Virus record (IMG/VR): IMGVR_UViG_2529293138_000005
Coordinates: 1 to 6,386 of that record
Source: a virus
Lineage: Duplodnaviria > Heunggongvirae > Uroviricota > Caudoviricetes
Direction: 5' to 3' (one strand)
DNA: 6,386 nt
The stretch's first letter is position 1; each line of letters starts with the position of its first letter. A program made the position numbers and the translations under genes. The notes under the pieces were generated by a model, which had not been told where the DNA came from, did not search any database, and worked only from the letters and a program-made list of their open reading frames with translations. Of this stretch, positions 1 through 6,386 are shown piece after piece.

Positions 1-288
1 ATGAAACTTAAATATTCTGGCTTAACTGCCAGCGGCACCGCTCGGCCTGAAATCCGTAACGGCGATATTTACCGCGATAAATATGGCGGCATGGTAACGA
101 TTAAAGGCGTGGCAGAACGGCGCATCACCTACCGCCGTGAAGGTTACGAATATGATTGCGTGATGCCTGTTTATCAATTCCGGCGTGATTTCACGCTGGT
201 AGGCCAGCGTAAAGCCGTTAATCAGAAACGTGCAACAGGTTATATCCGCAAAATCCGTGAAATGCTGGTCGCAGGGGGTAAGAAATGA
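1..288 (+). CDS. Hypothetical small basic protein (95 aa); begins at the window edge, so may be 5'-truncated
   Basis: Uninterrupted ORF in the same orientation as the downstream operon. Its stop TGA (286-288) overlaps the next ATG (285-287) as ATGA, suggesting translational coupling. No recognisable family motif. Confidence 0.45.
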   Translation: MKLKYSGLTASGTARPEIRNGDIYRDKYGGMVTIKGVAERRITYRREGYEYDCVMPVYQFRRDFTLVGQRKAVNQKRATGYIRKIREMLVAGGKK

Positions 289-452
289 AACTGGCACCGA
301 ACGTAAAACGATTACCGAAAGATAAATACACCGATGCGATTATTTTTGCGGGTATTGATGCTCACTCATTCGCAGAGCATTACATCATTGCACAGGCCAA
401 AAAAGCAGGCGATCCAGTCCCTCCCGTTTATCTGGGGGCGTTAATCAGTTAA
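285..452 (+). CDS. Hypothetical small protein (55 aa), absent from the supplied ORF track
   Basis: ATG at 285 preceded by a strong Shine-Dalgarno-like GGGGGT at about 273-278. Hand translation gives MKLAPNVKRLPKDKYTDAIIFAGIDAHSFAEHYIIAQAKKAGDPVPPVYLGALIS with TAA at 450-452. Start overlaps the upstream stop. Confidence 0.4.
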   Translation: MKLAPNVKRLPKDKYTDAIIFAGIDAHSFAEHYIIAQAKKAGDPVPPVYLGALIS

Positions 453-502
453 GCGAACTGGATAACCTCCAGATTGTTGATGATGGGCGATACAGGGCGA
501 CG

Positions 503-1684
503 GTGATACGCGCCGGAAATATTGAAGAGCCGCAGCTGTTAACCATCGCCACGAAACTGGCGATCGCCGGAGTCCAGGAGGCGCGGCTACTTTCTGAAAA
601 TTTCGAATTGCTGGAGGAATGGAGCGACCAGCTTCCACGGCTTAGGGAGACATGGGAACGCGGGGAAAGCCTGAGCAACCAGCGAAAAACCACGCTACCA
701 ATGAGCGTGGGATCTGCCGGATACGACACACAACTTGATTACGTGGTTAAGGGAATTATTCCGGCTGTATCGCTTTGCAGCATATACGGGGCGAGCGGTT
801 CCTATAAATCATTCCTTGCCGGATCGTGGGCGTGTCACGTTTCCACTGGCCGCCAGTGGGGATGCCGCAGGGTGGCGCATGGCGCTGTTCTCTATGTGGT
901 TGGTGAAGGCGGTATCGGCGTTCCTCGTCGTGTAAAAGCCTGGGAGGTTGTGCACGGTGAGCAGGTGAAAAATCTGTATCTGGTAAACCGTCCCATCTTT
1001 CCGGCTGCCCCGCTTGATGTTGATGAAATGGTTATCGCTGCCCGTCAGGTGGAACGGGAAACGGGTAAACCTGTACGCATGATTATTCTGGATACGCTGG
1101 CGCGGTGCTTTGGTGGCAATGATGAAAATGATTCCCGTGATATGGGGGCGTTTATCCGTGGGTGTGACGAACTGAAACGACGCACAGGGGCCACGGTGCT
1201 GGTGGTTCACCATTCCGGCAAGGATGAAACAAAGGGAGCGCGTGGTTCCAGTGCATTTCGTGCTTCGCTGGATGCTGAATACCGGATACGCAGGGAGGAC
1301 GCAGGAAGCGAAGCCCTGGTTATCTCATGCACCAAAATGAAGGATGCGGAGGAACTCAAAGAAGCCGCATATGACTTACGCGTGGTGGAGCTTTTTACCG
1401 ACGCTGACGGGGAGTTAATCACGTCGCTGGTGGTGGTGGATAAGCCGCGCCCTCCCGTTGAACTGGAGCGCATCGAGGAGGCTGGCAACAAGACGGAAAA
1501 CCATACCGCGCTATGGGGATGCATACGTTCACGCACACAGAACGGCGACAAGTGCACGATCCCGCTGTTACGTGATGACATGAAAAAACTGGGGTACGAA
1601 ATGAAAAACTTCCGGCGCTGGCTGTACAAGCTGGAAAAAGACAGGGTTATTCGTATCGATGGGGATGATGTAGCGCCGCTATAA
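503..1684 (+). CDS. Replication protein, RepA-like RecA-family ATPase (AAA_25-type helicase/initiator) with a C-terminal extension
   Basis: Motifs read directly from the translation: P-loop-like GASGSYKS, Walker-B-like MIILDTLARCFGG, and HHSGKDETKGARGSSAFRASLDAEY, typical of RepA/AAA_25 proteins. GTG start at 503; an in-frame ATG at 701 is an alternative start. Followed immediately by an iteron-like block. Confidence 0.75.
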   Translation: MIRAGNIEEPQLLTIATKLAIAGVQEARLLSENFELLEEWSDQLPRLRETWERGESLSNQRKTTLPMSVGSAGYDTQLDYVVKGIIPAVSLCSIYGASGSYKSFLAGSWACHVSTGRQWGCRRVAHGAVLYVVGEGGIGVPRRVKAWEVVHGEQVKNLYLVNRPIFPAAPLDVDEMVIAARQVERETGKPVRMIILDTLARCFGGNDENDSRDMGAFIRGCDELKRRTGATVLVVHHSGKDETKGARGSSAFRASLDAEYRIRREDAGSEALVISCTKMKDAEELKEAAYDLRVVELFTDADGELITSLVVVDKPRPPVELERIEEAGNKTENHTALWGCIRSRTQNGDKCTIPLLRDDMKKLGYEMKNFRRWLYKLEKDRVIRIDGDDVAPL

Positions 1685-1860
1685 AGTGAGGTGCAAAAGC
1701 GAGGTGTATAGAAGGAGGGCCAAAATTAGACCGCTACCCCTCACTTTTCGGCCTGTATACATCCTCAAAAGTGAGGGGCAAAAAAATACTTATGAAACAC
1801 ACACATAGAAAAAGCGAAAATCTCAAGCGAGACGGAGCCAGACACTTTAAAAAGTGAGGC
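1682..1860. repeat. Iteron-like repeat block (four copies of an AAAGTGAGG-type motif, one inverted); candidate origin or operator region
   Basis: Motif copies at 1683-1693, 1737-1751 (inverted), 1767-1778 and 1850-1860. Copies 1737-1748 (CCCCTCACTTTT) and 1767-1778 (AAAAGTGAGGGG) form a perfect 12-bp inverted repeat around an 18-nt spacer containing GTATAC. Region is AT-rich and sits directly after the rep stop. Confidence 0.5.
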
Positions 1861-1883
1861 GAAAAACTGAGAGTTTGCGAGAA

Positions 1884-2135
1884 ATGAACAAAATGCGTAG
1901 AGACAGAACAGAGCCAAAATATAAAGCGTTAGACATGACAGAGCACGCTTTAAAGGTGGCAATCAGAACGATAGACCGCCACGCGGGGGAAGGATACGCG
2001 AAGGAACATCCCGACATGATAAGCGCATTCATGACCACAGCAGCGGCAAACTTTGCCACGCTGACAGAACGGGAGATTGCCGAAGCGGAACAGGTAACAA
2101 CCATCAACGTTAAAACCGGAGAGCAGACAGCATGA
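1884..2135 (+). CDS. Hypothetical protein (about 83 aa), translationally coupled to the ssb-like gene
   Basis: ATG at 1884 with GAGAG about 10 nt upstream. The track's GTG start at 1854 lies inside an iteron copy and is less likely. Stop TGA 2133-2135 overlaps the ssb ATG at 2132 (ATGA). Confidence 0.5.
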   Translation: MNKMRRDRTEPKYKALDMTEHALKVAIRTIDRHAGEGYAKEHPDMISAFMTTAAANFATLTEREIAEAEQVTTINVKTGEQTA

Positions 2136-2555
2136 CAGCACAGATAGCGGCTTACGGACGGCTGGTGGCTGACCCGCAGTTAAAGACCACCAGCAAGGGT
2201 ACACAGATGACGATGGCGAGTATGGCGGTCCCCCTTCCGTGCAGCCAGGCAGATGACGGAGCGGCGACGATGTGGTTATCCGTCATGGCGTTTGGCAGAC
2301 AGGCCGACGCACTGGCAAAACAACCACAAAGGCGAACTGGTGAGCGTGGCGGGTAACATGCAGGTAAGTCAGTGGACAGGCCAGAACGGCGAAACGCGGC
2401 AGGGCTGGCAGGTTATCGCAGACAGCGTAATCAGTGCGAGAACGGCGCGACCTGGCGGCAAAAAAGGCCAGCAGGGGCAGGCTACTGATGCACTGAACAG
2501 GGCAAAACAACAGGCGGGTAACGATGATCCGTACGGGGATAACATACCGTTTTAA
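2132..2555 (+). pseudogene. ssb: Single-stranded DNA-binding protein (SSB) gene split by a +1 frameshift near 2317-2324
   Basis: The N-terminal part (frame of 2132) reads AYGRLVADPQLKTTSKGTQMTMASMAV...WLSVMAFGRQADALAK, an SSB OB-fold pattern. The C-terminal part (frame of 2253) reads HKGELVSVAGNMQVSQWTGQNGETRQGWQVIADSVI and ends in the acidic tail DDPYGDNIPF (compare E. coli SSB ...DDDIPF). The two halves are in different frames; removing one A from the AAAA run at 2317-2320 restores a continuous reading ...ALANNHKGELV.... Confidence 0.65.
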
Positions 2556-2571
2556 GCAACGAGTAACAGAA

Positions 2572-2593
2572 GCCGGAGAAGTCCGGCTTTTTT
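2572..2593 (+). terminator. Rho-independent terminator closing the rep-ssb operon
   Basis: Stem GCCGGA, loop GAAG, stem TCCGGC, then TTTTTT; located 17 nt after the ssb stop. Confidence 0.7.
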
Positions 2594-2600
2594 ATGCCCC

Positions 2601-2628
2601 AAAAAAAGCCCGGAGGGTCTTATCGGGC
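2601..2628 (-). terminator. Possible minus-strand terminator; with the previous hairpin forms a bidirectional pair
   Basis: On the minus strand: stem AGCCCG, 11-nt loop, stem CGGGCT, then TTTTTTT (complement of the A-run 2601-2607). No convincing minus-strand gene upstream of it in the window. Confidence 0.3.
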
Positions 2629-2710
2629 TTTTGCATATGAGGTTTTTTTGGTGCGCTGACACACATGATCGGGATAATAATTTCATAATTTGCAACATAA
2701 CTCAATATTA

Positions 2711-2738
2711 TTGCACAAAATGCAATCCTGATTATAAT
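2711..2738 (+). promoter_or_regulatory. Near-consensus sigma70-type promoter with an overlapping dyad, upstream of the head operon
   Basis: -35 TTGCAC (2711-2716), 16-nt spacer, -10 TATAAT (2733-2738). The -35 lies inside the dyad TTGCA-N5-TGCAA (2711-2725), and the -10 lies inside the perfect palindrome GATTATAATC (2730-2739). Confidence 0.45.
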
Positions 2739-2796
2739 CATGACTGGATGAACAATCCAGTTATGATTTTTAAGTTCGAAGAGGAATTTCTTACTA

Positions 2797-3002
2797 TGGC
2801 TGAAGAGAAAAAAGGCGGTGTTTCGGTGTACATAAGCTCCGACATCGTGGAGGCGCTCAAGGAACGCCACCAGCAGAACGTAAAAGCAGGCATTGCGGCA
2901 GGACTTGATCCACTGGCGATGGTTGAGCCGTCAACAGGCTGGCAGGTGCGCGCCTATTTACGTGCGGCGCTGGGCATGAATCAGACTCATGGGGGTGAAT
3001 AA
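2797..3002 (+). CDS. Hypothetical small protein (68 aa) at the head of the capsid operon; possibly a ribbon-helix-helix-like or scaffold-like protein
   Basis: ATG at 2797 with AAGAGGAA upstream. Stop TAA (3000-3002) shares a base with the capsid ATG (3002-3004). The longer track ORF starting at 2631 would overlap the promoter region and is rejected. Confidence 0.5.
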
Positions 3003-4057
3003 TGGCAGGCAAAGCAACGGCACTTACCACTAATCAGCTTTTCACGTACATGAATCGCGGGGATATTGCGGAATTTAAATTCAGTCCGCTGTTTACCACG
3101 CTGTTTTTCACGAACGTGGCGACATTCAGCACCCAAAACATCATGCTGGATACCCTGGACATTGAAGAAGTCACTATGTCGGCGTTTTGTTCTCCTATGG
3201 TTGGCAGCCAGGTACAGCGCGATAAAGGGTACGAAACCAGCACAATCAAACCTGGCTACATGAAGCCAAAGCACGAAATCGATCCAACAAAGACCATCAT
3301 GCGCATGGCTGGAGAAGATCCGGCACAGCTTAACGACCCTACCTACCGCCGTATGCGCCTGATTACTGGCAACATGCGCCGCCAGATAAACGCCATTAAA
3401 GCGCGCGTGGAATGGCTGGCGGTGAATGCGATAACGACCGGAAAAAACATCATTGAGGGCGAAGGCATAGAACGCTATGAAATCGACTGGAAGATACCGG
3501 GAAAAAACATCATAGAGCAGGCCAAAGGCCGTAAATGGTCCGAGCAGGACAAAGAAACCCACGATCCAATCTATGATATCGAGCTTTATGCGGATCAAGC
3601 AGATTGCCCCGCCAACGTCATGATTATGGGCGCAGAGGTATGGCGCACGTTACGCAGCTTTAAAAAATTCCGTGAACTGTACGATCTTTCCCGTGGTTCA
3701 GAATCCGCCGCAGAACTGGCCTGTAAAAACCTGGGCGAAGTGGTGAGCTTTAAAGGCTATCTGGGCGATATTGCCCTTATCGTCTATTCCGGCAAATATA
3801 CTGACAGCGACGGCACCGAAAAATATTTCCTTGAGCCTGATTTGCTGGTCCTTGGCAACACCAACAATAAAGGGCTGGTGGCCTATGGTGCGATTATGGA
3901 TCAGGAAGCGGTAAGAACGGGCGCAACGCAAAACATGTACTACCCGAAAAACTGGATTGAGGACGGCGATCCGGCGATTGAGTACGTGCAGACACACAGC
4001 GCACCGCAGCCGGTTCCGGCAGATATTCGCAAATTTGTTACCGTCAAAATTGGTTAA
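3002..4057 (+). CDS. Major capsid protein, lambda gpE family (351 aa)
   Basis: Collinear similarity to lambda gpE as recalled: FKFSPLF versus KFKFDPLF, TIKPGYMKPKHEIDP versus FTPGYVKPKHEVNP, DPTYRRMRLI versus DPAYRRRRII, FKGYLGDIALIVYSG versus YKGMYGDVAIVVYSG, LVLGNT versus MVLGNT, YPKNWIEDGDPA versus YPKNWVTTGDPA. Strong SD (GGGGGTGA) before the ATG. Confidence 0.9.
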   Translation: MAGKATALTTNQLFTYMNRGDIAEFKFSPLFTTLFFTNVATFSTQNIMLDTLDIEEVTMSAFCSPMVGSQVQRDKGYETSTIKPGYMKPKHEIDPTKTIMRMAGEDPAQLNDPTYRRMRLITGNMRRQINAIKARVEWLAVNAITTGKNIIEGEGIERYEIDWKIPGKNIIEQAKGRKWSEQDKETHDPIYDIELYADQADCPANVMIMGAEVWRTLRSFKKFRELYDLSRGSESAAELACKNLGEVVSFKGYLGDIALIVYSGKYTDSDGTEKYFLEPDLLVLGNTNNKGLVAYGAIMDQEAVRTGATQNMYYPKNWIEDGDPAIEYVQTHSAPQPVPADIRKFVTVKIG

Positions 4058-4068
4058 CGGGGGATTCT

Positions 4069-4404
4069 ATGGACACTCCATACATTGAGTTATTTGCAGG
4101 CAGTCAGCAGGTATCCACGACACTGGTACATTTTGCCGCTGATGCTGGCGTTATTCAGGAATTTACCCCGCTGATGCTGGCGGACAATGGCGAGTTTAAG
4201 CCGTGGGATGGTCAGGAATCTGGCAAGGCTGTTTATCTGACTTCGTACCCAGTGGACACGTCAACGCAGAAATCAGCACAGTGTTACAAGACGGGGATAT
4301 TCAATATTGCCGCCGTTAACTGGCCTGAGAGCGTCGACACCGACGTGAAAAAATGCGCCGCCTTTGCGGGTTCTGGCGTATCCGTTCAGCCGCTGGCGCG
4401 ATAA
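4069..4404 (+). CDS. Head decoration protein, lambda gpD family (111 aa)
   Basis: Similarity to lambda gpD as recalled: TPLMLADNGEFKPWDG versus TPLMLDTSSRKLVAWDG, and YKTGIFNIAAVNWPESVDTDVKKCAAFAGSGVSV versus [44 protein letters not shown] upstream. Gene order E then D is the reverse of lambda (D then E). Confidence 0.85.
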   Translation: MDTPYIELFAGSQQVSTTLVHFAADAGVIQEFTPLMLADNGEFKPWDGQESGKAVYLTSYPVDTSTQKSAQCYKTGIFNIAAVNWPESVDTDVKKCAAFAGSGVSVQPLAR

Positions 4405-4478
4405 GCAGGGGGAACGATGGCAGAAACCCAGGCGATGACGGCGACATCGATCGCATACTGAAAACCATCTGAGACAAG

Positions 4479-4500
4479 GCCGGAGAAATCCGGCTTTTTT
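4479..4500 (+). terminator. Rho-independent terminator after the decoration gene, immediately upstream of cosQ
   Basis: Stem GCCGGA, loop GAAA, stem TCCGGC, then TTTTTT. Differs from the terminator at 2572-2593 by a single loop base. Confidence 0.7.
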
Positions 4501-4572
4501 GCGGGTCCTTTCCGGCGATCCGACAGGTTACGGGGCGGCGACCTCGCGCGTTTTCGCTATTTATGAGCCTTT
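4501..4572 (+). other. Lambda-type cos site 1 (cosQ-cosN), rightward orientation; cosN GGGCGGCGACCT at 4533-4544
   Basis: GCGGGTCCTTTCCGGCGATCCGACAGGTTACG, then GGGCGGCGACCT, then CGCGCGTTTTCGCTATTTATGAG. This is near-identical to the lambda right-end/left-end junction as recalled (...ACGGGTCCTTTCCGGTGATCCGACAGGTTACG | GGGCGGCGACCTCGCGGGTTTTCGCTATTTATGAAAA...). Confidence 0.8.
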
Positions 4573-4574
4573 TC

Positions 4575-4651
4575 AGGTTGGTGGTGGTGGTTTTGTTGTT
4601 CGCTGTATCTCTATGAATAAAAAGGGAAAGATAACCACAAAACACCAACCT
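4575..4651 (+). repeat. cosB-like region of cos 1: inverted repeats around an A-rich spacer, unlike lambda R sites
   Basis: AGGTTGGTGGTGGTGGTTTTGTTGTT (4575-4600) and AACCACAAAACACCAACCT (4633-4651). The 9-bp cores AGGTTGGTG (4575-4583) and CACCAACCT (4643-4651) are exact reverse complements. Lies between cosN and the terS start, where lambda carries its Nu1-binding sites. Confidence 0.4.
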
Positions 4652-4692
4652 GAAGCATTAACTAAGTGTGGGTATTGATGAAATCGCACCTG

Positions 4693-5220
4693 ATGAATAA
4701 AAAAACCATGGCGCAAAGCTGCCGTGTAAGTGCTACAGCGTTCGACAAGTGGGGAGTGACTCCCGTTGAACGTAAAGGCCGTGAGGCGTTTTATGATGTT
4801 GCCAGCGTGATAGACAATAGGGTTAACAATGCAATTAACCAGGTTACAAACGACAAAGGCGATATTGATGATGATGAACTTTTACGCGTAAGAATCAGAT
4901 TACTGACAGCACAGGCGGAGGCGCAGGAGCTTAAAAACGAGCGCGAACGCGGCGACGTGATTGATACAGGTTTTTGCCTGTACGCGCTTTCAAAGCTGGC
5001 GAGCCAGATTTCTTCAATCATGGACAGTTTGCCGCTTACCATGCAAAGGCGCTTCCCGCAGATTACTCCCGCTATGCTGGATGGGCTTAAAAGGGAAGTG
5101 GTTAAAGCCTGTAATGCCAGTGCCACAGTTGCCGACAACCTACCGAAGATACTGGCTGATTACCTGATGGAAACTACCGGAGACGTACCGGAGAAGTTGC
5201 TACAGAAGAAAGTCGAGTAA
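4693..5220 (+). CDS. Terminase small subunit, lambda Nu1-like
   Basis: C-terminal half collinear with lambda Nu1 as recalled: LTAQAEAQELKNERE versus LTRAQADAQELKNARD, GFCLYALSKLASQISSIMDSLPLTMQRRFPQ versus AFCTFVLSRIAGEIASILDGLPLSVQRRFPE. The N-terminal putative DNA-binding region (MNKKTMAQSCRVSATAFDKWGV) is divergent. Start ambiguous: GTG 4666, ATG 4678, ATG 4693 or ATG 4708; 4693 chosen because it aligns with the Nu1 N-terminus. No large terminase ORF follows. Confidence 0.85.
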   Translation: MNKKTMAQSCRVSATAFDKWGVTPVERKGREAFYDVASVIDNRVNNAINQVTNDKGDIDDDELLRVRIRLLTAQAEAQELKNERERGDVIDTGFCLYALSKLASQISSIMDSLPLTMQRRFPQITPAMLDGLKREVVKACNASATVADNLPKILADYLMETTGDVPEKLLQKKVE

Positions 5221-5246
5221 CAGACGCGCAATTATTGAACAAAACT

Positions 5247-5450
5247 GAGAAACGACATGAAAGCGTCATAAATCGCCATTTTAGATGATTACCGTGTCGT
5301 TTCTTTTTATTGTGTATCTATTTAAAAACAAATAGTTATGTTCGAGAATTACCGACATGCTTTTTCCAGAAAAATTTTCATAAACAGATAAAAACCGCGA
5401 GGTCGCCGCCCCGTAACGGGCCATAATTCCAGGAAGGACCCGACGACACC
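5247..5450 (-). other. Lambda-type cos site 2 in inverted orientation (cosN AGGTCGCCGCCC at 5400-5411, i.e. GGGCGGCGACCT on the minus strand), with lambda-like R-site inverted repeats
   Basis: Reverse complement of 5343-5411 reads GGGCGGCGACCTCGCGGTTTTTATCTGTTTATGAAAATTTTTCTGG..., resembling the lambda left end (GGGCGGCGACCTCGCGGGTTTTCGCTATTTATGAAAATTTTCCGG). GAAACGACA (5249-5257) and TGTCGTTTC (5295-5303) are exact inverted 9-mers resembling lambda R-site cores as recalled. The cosQ-like side (5412-5450) is only partly lambda-like. Confidence 0.7.
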
Positions 5451-5475
5451 AGACAATCAGAACATCGGGAACACA

Positions 5476-5760
5476 ATGACAGAAGCCGAACTACTGAAAG
5501 TAATCTGCCGTATTACCGGAATCAGCCAGACAGCAGGCAAACAGGAGGCCACGCAGCCGGACAGCGTGATAGCCGAAAATTACGCGCGTGTGGTGGCTGA
5601 GGTGATGCGCCGTGATGGTATTGAGCTTAACGGCGTGGATATGCGCGACATACGGATCAGAGTTCTGGAGTTGTTGTCATATCGTCGCCGCGTGGAGATG
5701 TATCGGGAGAGCGAGAAAAAGACTTACCAGTGGAAGAAACCGGAGCGGCTGCGTACGTAA
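5476..5760 (+). CDS. Hypothetical protein (94 aa) immediately beyond cos 2
   Basis: ATG at 5476 with GGGAA about 8 nt upstream. No recognisable motif. Arg/Glu-rich C-terminus. Confidence 0.4.
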   Translation: MTEAELLKVICRITGISQTAGKQEATQPDSVIAENYARVVAEVMRRDGIELNGVDMRDIRIRVLELLSYRRRVEMYRESEKKTYQWKKPERLRT

Positions 5761-5933
5761 TGCGTACGGACATCGAGACAAAGACGAACAGTATTCTGGT
5801 TCAGTGCAAAACAACGTTAAACGTGGTTTTGCGTCCAGAGTCATCGTAATGGTTTTATGCGTCCTGCGTTGCGCTGGTGGATTTGAGGGATATAGCTGGT
5901 AGTGGTAAATCCCTTTTGCGTGGCGGTGCGATG

Positions 5934-6021
5934 GCTGCATGGTGGAAATCACCACGAAGGGGAGGTGATAAACACTCCCCCTTTTCGTGTGGTGCATGGT
6001 CAAAATGACCACGGAGGGGAG
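5934..6021. repeat. Two copies of an approximately 30-nt direct repeat (period 57 bp) with embedded hairpins, in a non-coding region
   Basis: GCTGCATGGTGGAAATCACCACGAAGGGGAG (5934-5964) versus GGTGCATGGTCAAAATGACCACGGAGGGGAG (5991-6021). Embedded palindrome TGGTCA-AAA-TGACCA (5997-6011). Imperfect hairpin CACGAAGGGGAG...CTCCCCCTTTTCGTG (about 5953-5989). Hairpin GACTATC-TCAAA-GATAGTC (6026-6044). Confidence 0.4.
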
Positions 6022-6271
6022 AACCGACTATCTCAAAGATAGTCACCCCATACCAGGATCACGCTAATAACGCACAACAGAGTGACCCATAGCCACCCTG
6101 TTCAACCGTTCCGGCTGACTGGACAGCATCATCACCATGATGGTGACGCAGCCCACCAGCAACCATAACGATTTCCTTTACAGCTGATGTGCTTTTTTGC
6201 TGATAAGGCGTAACCAGTTGATTGTTCCAGAATCACCCATTGGGGGAGGCTGGGCGGCCTGCTGTGGGCTT

Positions 6272-6288
6272 TTCCACCATTGGTGGAA
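6272..6288. repeat. Perfect 17-bp palindrome TTCCACCA-T-TGGTGGAA
   Basis: Read directly from the sequence; 8-bp arms around a single central base, typical geometry for a dimeric DNA-binding protein site or a tight hairpin. Confidence 0.3.
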
Positions 6289-6386
6289 AGGTGCACATCT
6301 GGATCATCATTACGGTGATCAATGGTATGTAAAACCCACCAGCCTGATTGACATTTAACCGGAAAAAAGCCAGGTAGCCCCGTCAT

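Follow-up and report, generated by a model that had tools for sequence, protein, structure and literature searches.

A one-base insertion in the ssb gene of a putative Escherichia coli phage satellite is probably a sequencing or consensus artifact

The window, by which we mean the whole 6,386-nucleotide stretch of DNA analyzed here (positions 1 to 6,386 of the IMG/VR virus record IMGVR_UViG_2529293138_000005), holds a gene for a single-stranded DNA-binding protein (SSB) whose two halves lie in different reading frames. A sequence-only reading of the window attributed the break to one extra A and offered three causes for it: faulty sequencing, the recent inactivation by mutation of a gene in an otherwise intact element, or, less likely, a slippage-dependent expression switch. 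Which of these explains the locus best depends on what the gene is, what kind of element carries it, where exactly the extra base lies, and what else is unusual about the sequence around it.

One SSB gene read in two frames

The interrupted gene runs from 2132 to 2555 on the plus strand. It is 424 bp long, compared with 423 bp and 140 amino acids in its intact relatives, in keeping with the proposal that a single extra A breaks one SSB gene. The N-terminal open reading frame (ORF), at 2132 to 2356, encodes 74 amino acids that match positions 4 to 65 of the Pfam SSB profile (PF00436) with 29.3 bits, against a cut-off of 26 bits, and this shifted frame is stopped after 74 codons by a premature TAA at 2354 to 2356 (plus strand). 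The C-terminal ORF, at 2253 to 2555, encodes 100 amino acids in the +1 frame relative to the first and matches profile positions 64 to 101 with 25.5 bits, which is under the cut-off. The two half-matches abut exactly in the profile, and the locus is thus a single SSB gene divided by a net gain of one base; both halves of an SSB are indeed present in different frames, as had been claimed. The acidic C-terminal tail is likewise there, since the second ORF finishes in NDDPYGDNIPF. Its tip, DDPYGDNIPF at 2523 to 2552 (plus strand), has the IPF ending and is readable in the +1 frame only, and the C-terminal stretch of the SSB in the deposited sequence is ...GGKKGQQGQATDALNRAKQQAGNDDPYGDNIPF.

Deletion of base 2322 restored a 140-amino-acid protein that is 100% identical to the SSBs of three relatives (L008, L011, and L013; the loci fetched for comparison carry L numbers throughout). 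The repaired protein contained one Pfam SSB domain, which scored 59.7 bits with residues 5 to 99 aligned to positions 4 to 101 of the 104 in the profile, and it scored 61.5 bits against TIGR00621, above the cut-off of 53.95 bits. All of its matches among PDB sequences were SSBs. It has a single OB-fold, with the family profile matched end to end, followed by a flexible linker and the IPF ending, for which partner binding is predicted. Judged by these profile matches, the gene is an ordinary SSB gene, and its family assignment is unambiguous.

The partner-binding tail of E. coli SSB ends in IPF. The protein studied here is like that SSB type (PF00436 and TIGR00621) in having one OB-fold once it is repaired, a Gly/Gln-rich linker, and an IPF tip. 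It differs in length, with 140 amino acids versus 178 in E. coli SSB (PDB chain 1eqq), and it is no more than a distant match to E. coli SSB chains, with E values of about 1e-4 to 1e-5. Its tail is also less acidic (DDPYGDNIPF), and its gene, unlike that of E. coli SSB, lies on a putative phage satellite and was deposited split over two frames.

An ancestry as two separate genes was contradicted by the comparison of homologous loci, in which the homologues are single ORFs of 136 to 150 amino acids. The gene annotation of the relatives gives an intact 423-bp gene for a 140-amino-acid "single-stranded DNA-binding protein," and every relative examined from among the 1,446 matching complete genomes had an intact SSB gene in its annotation. 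Among the IMG/VR SSB copies that could be assessed, 64 of 69 were full length (136 to 149 amino acids) and ended in IPF. The other five (about 7%) were disrupted at positions other than that in the window. In one of them (L018), an in-frame deletion joins two AGN motifs and the IPF tail is retained; in another (L047), a frameshift follows GGKK, where the gene in the window carries an A6 run. A third (L053) is frameshifted near the C terminus, a fourth (L075) is truncated at 113 amino acids, and the fifth (L083) has lost its register upstream. Disrupted SSB copies occur at a rate of a few percent, whether real or artifactual.

The island and its source assembly

The window corresponds to positions 40 to 6425 of contig AFDZ01000011.1 (GCA_000225205.2) of the E. 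coli STEC strain MHI813, and the product of the 74-amino-acid ORF is recorded on that one contig only. The contig breaks off 39 bp before the window begins, within a mobile island whose int-alpA half is on another contig, and it is because of this break that the window lacks int and alpA. The first genes in the window are a DUF4222 gene (1 to 288; profile match) and the repA helicase gene (AAA_25; 285 to 1684, plus strand; profile match), after which comes a gene for 83 amino acids (1884 to 2135, plus strand) that was found by tblastn and is annotated in the relatives. The TGA of this small gene overlaps the ATG of ssb (ATGA at 2132 to 2135), and the two genes are probably translationally coupled. 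Just 3' of the SSB stop, at 2572 to 2595 on the plus strand, we read from the sequence a hairpin and T-run (AAGCCGGA-GAAG-TCCGGCTTTTTT) that the consensus scan did not list and that is likely the terminator of the replication operon. Farther along are a 68-amino-acid ORF (2796 to 2999; tblastn), genes for a lambda gpE-like capsid protein (3002 to 4057) and a gpD-like decoration protein (4069 to 4404), both found by profile match, and a homologue of the Nu1-like small terminase (4678 to 5220; Pfam Phage_Nu1, 82 bits). An inverted repeat with a 14-bp stem (2736 to 2768) lies between ssb and the capsid genes; it overlaps a promoter-like hexamer pair and could be an operator or a regulatory hairpin of the capsid operon.

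The ssb gene belongs to the replication module (repA, small ORF, and ssb) of what is probably a phage-inducible chromosomal island (PICI) of the Gram-negative EcCICFT073 type, and its product most plausibly serves the island itself as an accessory protein of replication. In MHI813, the island is located between roxA and phoQ. The full-length relatives occupy the same site and start with int, for a tyrosine integrase, and alpA; both flanking genes, roxA and phoQ, were visible in L009 and also in the more distant L004 and L005. Five 99%-identical relatives (L009 to L011, L013, and L014) share an int-alpA-repA-ssb-capsid-decoration-Nu1-like layout as far as their contigs extend, with L014 being cut before int and alpA. 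No genes for portal, protease, large terminase, tail, or lysis proteins were present in these five or in L004 and L005.

The relatives at the roxA-phoQ site are like EcCICFT073-type islands in carrying int, alpA, a replication gene (for a RepA helicase or a D5_N primase), a gpE-like capsid gene, and a gpD-like decoration gene. In EcCICFT073, c1499 is described as the capsid homologue and c1500 as the head decoration protein, and efficient transfer of that island depends on its own pri-rep (PMC6092414). The paper on that island mentions no ssb gene and states no TerS homologue (Fillol-Salom et al. 2018, PMC6092414). Compared by description, the island in MHI813 differs from EcCICFT073 in having a Nu1-like gene where the latter has no TerS homologue.

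Membership in the capsid-forming PICI (cf-PICI) class was considered and rejected, as the full-length relatives have capsid, decoration, and Nu1-like genes and sometimes a head-tail connector gene, with no portal, protease, or large terminase. A cf-PICI has a complete head gene set of its own, including the large terminase, portal, and protease. Rpp, which is encoded by E. coli PICIs, binds TerS and redirects packaging. A "head-tail connector" gene of about 414 bp, which lies between the decoration and Nu1-like genes in L001, L002, and L004, is missing from the window at 4398 to 4678, where a remnant (4398 to 4469) matches the last 26 residues of that gene. Since the closest relatives (L005 and L009 to L014) have the same deletion, the loss of the connector reflects variation between lineages, not an error. 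In the L012 island, ProQ-like and PerC-like genes (7181 to 7977 of that locus, at the roxA-phoQ site) replace the capsid and decoration genes, and a D5_N primase takes the place of the RepA helicase. These replacements show modular exchange within the island family.

Strain MHI813 (AFDZ00000000), a bovine isolate of serotype O8:H19, was sequenced with 454 Titanium FLX 3-kb paired ends only and assembled with Celera 6.0, and its raw reads were deposited (PMC3491183). The draft dates from 2011 pyrosequencing. Insertions are the commonest read error of 454 Titanium, and carry-forward or incomplete extension is a named cause (PMC3116506). Up to 6 places per complete E. coli genome matched the ssb query and up to 13 matched the whole window, which makes it plausible that a repeat caused the contig to break and that local support is poor. 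No indels were seen in the core genes that share the contig (phoQ, phoP, and purB), which cover 3.7 kb in L007. A Logan contig (L008) was rejected as a resequencing of the same strain; its capsid protein is identical, but about 25 substitutions over 4.5 kb mark it as coming from a different strain.

Position and company of the extra base

The sequence-only reading was correct that the shift comes from one extra A and incorrect about its location. It placed the insertion in the A4 run at 2317 to 2320 (plus strand). That run consists of the last base of GCA and the Lys codon AAA, a native Ala-Lys pair, and has no insertion in it; all relatives keep it, and it is unchanged in L001 to L003, L008 to L011, L013, and L014. 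In the alignments, the true frameshift site is an AA dinucleotide with one extra A at 2322 to 2323 (plus strand), where the relatives have a single A in the codon CAC for His64. The relatives read GCAAAAC-ACCAC where the window reads GCAAAACAACCAC, and a longer alignment sets GCAAAAC-ACCACAAAGG in the relatives against GCAAAACAACCACAAAGG in the window. In codons, GCA AAA CAC CAC AAA GGC in the relatives is GCA AAA CAA CCA CAA AGG in the window. Diverged alleles that are only about 80% identical (L004, L005, and L012) also have the codons of the A4 run in frame and a single A at the site. Repair within the A4 run yields ALANNHKGELV, and the ancestral sequence is ALAKHHKGELV. By these alignments, the change is from A1 to A2, beside the homopolymer and outside it. 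A consensus chimera of two diverged island copies was rejected as its origin; the diverged alleles have a single A as well, and mixing them with the others cannot yield CAACC.

The frameshifted allele was confined to its source. Among the fetched loci, a 24-mer spanning the insertion was found in the source contig (L006/L007) only, and the intact 23-mer was found in nine other loci. None of the 558 complete E. coli genomes that matched an 81-bp query across the site carried the allele; their best matches had 80 bases and one gap. A 35-mer of the frameshifted allele had no exact match in IMG/VR and none in the JGI metagenomes, and the intact 34-mer, which served as a positive control, was found on 70 IMG/VR contigs. 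Complete E. coli genomes carry the intact allele by the hundreds. The GTDB representative genomes were uninformative, with no match for either the frameshifted or the intact allele.

The extra A has company. It had been treated as an isolated lesion, and that did not hold: the window contains three more 1-base insertions, two of which break repA. The closest relative, L013 (GCA_015389545.1), is 99.76% identical over the 10,096 bp available, and the indels relative to it number four, all in the window and all insertions of a single base that repeats an adjacent one; there are no deletions. The same four were seen in comparisons with L008 to L011 and L014. The insertion at 434 to 438 in repA lengthens G4 to G5, and the one at 443 to 444 in repA, that at 2322 to 2323 in ssb, and an intergenic one at 2754 to 2755 (plus strand) each change A to AA, the last lying within the loop of the inverted repeat that precedes the capsid genes. 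Two of these three A insertions share a context of an A-run, a C, and an A (AAAAC-A and AAC-A), in which templates lagging behind from the preceding A flow would be expected to give just such an extra A. The insertions in repA are 6 bp apart in a stretch that is otherwise 100% identical to the relatives, and they break the gene into ORFs of 55 and 393 amino acids; the intact RepA of the relatives has 465 to 469. With both extra bases removed, RepA has 465 amino acids and is 100% identical to that of L013.

The first 2.8 kb of the contig holds all four insertions; the 7.3 kb that follow, which take in the rest of the island, phoQ, phoP, and purB, hold none. The chance of this under a uniform spread is (2794/10096)^4 = 0.006, a value computed post hoc with the pattern already seen. 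Indels and substitutions relative to L013 numbered 4 and 3 in the first 2.8 kb and 0 and 17 in the rest (Fisher P = 0.003). An indel polymorphism of 8 to 9 bp with nearby substitutions at 2605 to 2612, within the intergenic hairpin region that follows ssb, has a different character: it is present in comparisons with L008, L009, L010, and L014 and absent in those with L011 and L013, and since it differs among relatives, it is a natural variant.

Artifact, mutation, or recoding

We consider the extra A to be a probable pyrosequencing or consensus artifact, a technical cause that we infer from the clustering of four like insertions near a contig end, a draft built from 454 data only, repaired proteins that are identical to intact ones, and an allele found in a single assembly. 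A sequencing error was the cause that the sequence-only reading listed first, and it is the one that these observations favor. The repaired SSB and RepA are both 100% identical to the intact proteins of other strains, which means that no decay has accumulated downstream of the shifts. The locus thus shares with known 454 draft artifacts the Titanium-only data and the assembly-unique, clustered, 1-base insertions that lengthen runs near a contig end. It differs from them in that three of the four changes are from A1 to A2, outside long homopolymers, where 454 consensus errors usually fall, and an A1-to-A2 consensus error would need very low coverage or a systematic flow artifact. The ssb and intergenic insertions are also 2.3 to 2.8 kb from the contig end, more than one read length. 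Under the artifact reading, the A at 2322/2323 would most likely be absent from the DNA of the strain. A pyrosequencing over-call would have entered the Celera consensus in a poorly supported stretch near the contig end, and in the A4-C-A context, incomplete extension of the A4 run may have carried surplus signal over to the following A flow. The gene in the living strain would then have the sequence GCA AAA CAC CAC AAA GGC and yield a normal 140-amino-acid SSB.

Genuine inactivation by a very recent mutation, with the island in MHI813 shedding its replication module, is unlikely, though it is the most serious rival to an artifact. The cell would in that case make a truncated OB-fold fragment of 74 amino acids, translation starting internally, for example at the ATG at 2346, might also give a C-terminal fragment with the IPF tail, and the island would be replication defective and transfer poorly. 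The fact that phoQ, phoP, and purB are free of indels speaks for this reading, in that errors do not pervade the assembly and the indels map to the mobile element, striking both of its replication genes, repA and ssb. An A1-to-A2 insertion is not a classic 454 consensus error, and real decay does occur in the relatives: related islands in complete genomes carry pseudogenes, with a frameshifted terS in L004, an internal stop in repA in L005, and an IS21 insertion in L001, and the SSB copies disrupted elsewhere in IMG/VR add to these. A crippled island can also persist, since EcCICFT073 without pri-rep still transfers, its transfer being about 100-fold lower and not abolished (PMC6092414). Against this stands the requirement for four independent insertions, all of them base duplications and with no deletions, within 2.8 kb that hold 3 substitutions relative to L013, two of the insertions being 6 bp apart and one intergenic. 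The repaired proteins show no further decay, the allele is in no other assembly, and the data are a 454-only draft beside a contig end, which is why we continue to favor an artifact.

It is very improbable that the frameshift is real and bypassed, either by a +1 ribosomal shift at the rare AGG (CAA AGG CGA, 2328 to 2336) or by polymerase slippage on the A-run. Rare AGG codons can provoke +1 shifts, and the rare Arg codons AGG CGA sit where a +1 shift rejoins the SSB frame, a circumstantial point; the product of a shift at AGG, AKQPQ-GELV, would equal AKHHK-GELV in length. All homologues examined are nevertheless in a single frame at the site, including the alleles with as little as about 80% identity, and the broken allele occurs in one draft only, being absent from the 558 genomes, IMG/VR, and the JGI metagenomes. 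The stretch GCA AAA CAA CCA CAA AGG contains neither a prfB-like shift-prone codon nor an in-frame stop and has no Shine-Dalgarno-like element ahead of it, the rare AGG codon being the only candidate shift feature present, and the fold of 2300 to 2420, where a frameshift-stimulating RNA structure was sought, is ordinary (z = -0.69). The second frameshift in the window, of 2 bases in repA, has no such context either. Transcriptional slippage needs a long A or T run, of roughly 8 or more, and A4 is too short; the longest run near the site is the A4 at 2317 to 2320, the same in the relatives. Genes with programmed +1 frameshifting of the prfB/RF2 type and genes with transcriptional slippage are like ssb here in that a +1 frame change is needed for the full protein, and they differ in their conservation, their in-frame stop and Shine-Dalgarno-like stimulator, and their runs of more than four A. 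A programmed or slippage-dependent switch, the third cause suggested for this locus, is effectively excluded. Less probable even than the bypass as a whole is the variant in which the extra A is real and some full-length SSB arises through accidental, unselected hungry-codon +1 slippage at AGG (CAA-AGG, 2328 to 2333).

Real insertions would mean that the island is now without both its helicase and its SSB, a case of ordinary island decay and routine recent pseudogenization. If, as we think probable, they are artifacts, the deposited MHI813 draft misannotates the ssb and repA genes of the island as fragments. Frameshifts in 454-era drafts should be compared with near-identical assemblies before claims of recoding or of pseudogenes are made. 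The frameshift itself would be of little biological importance, as these E. coli islands commonly carry an SSB gene, and an intact one.
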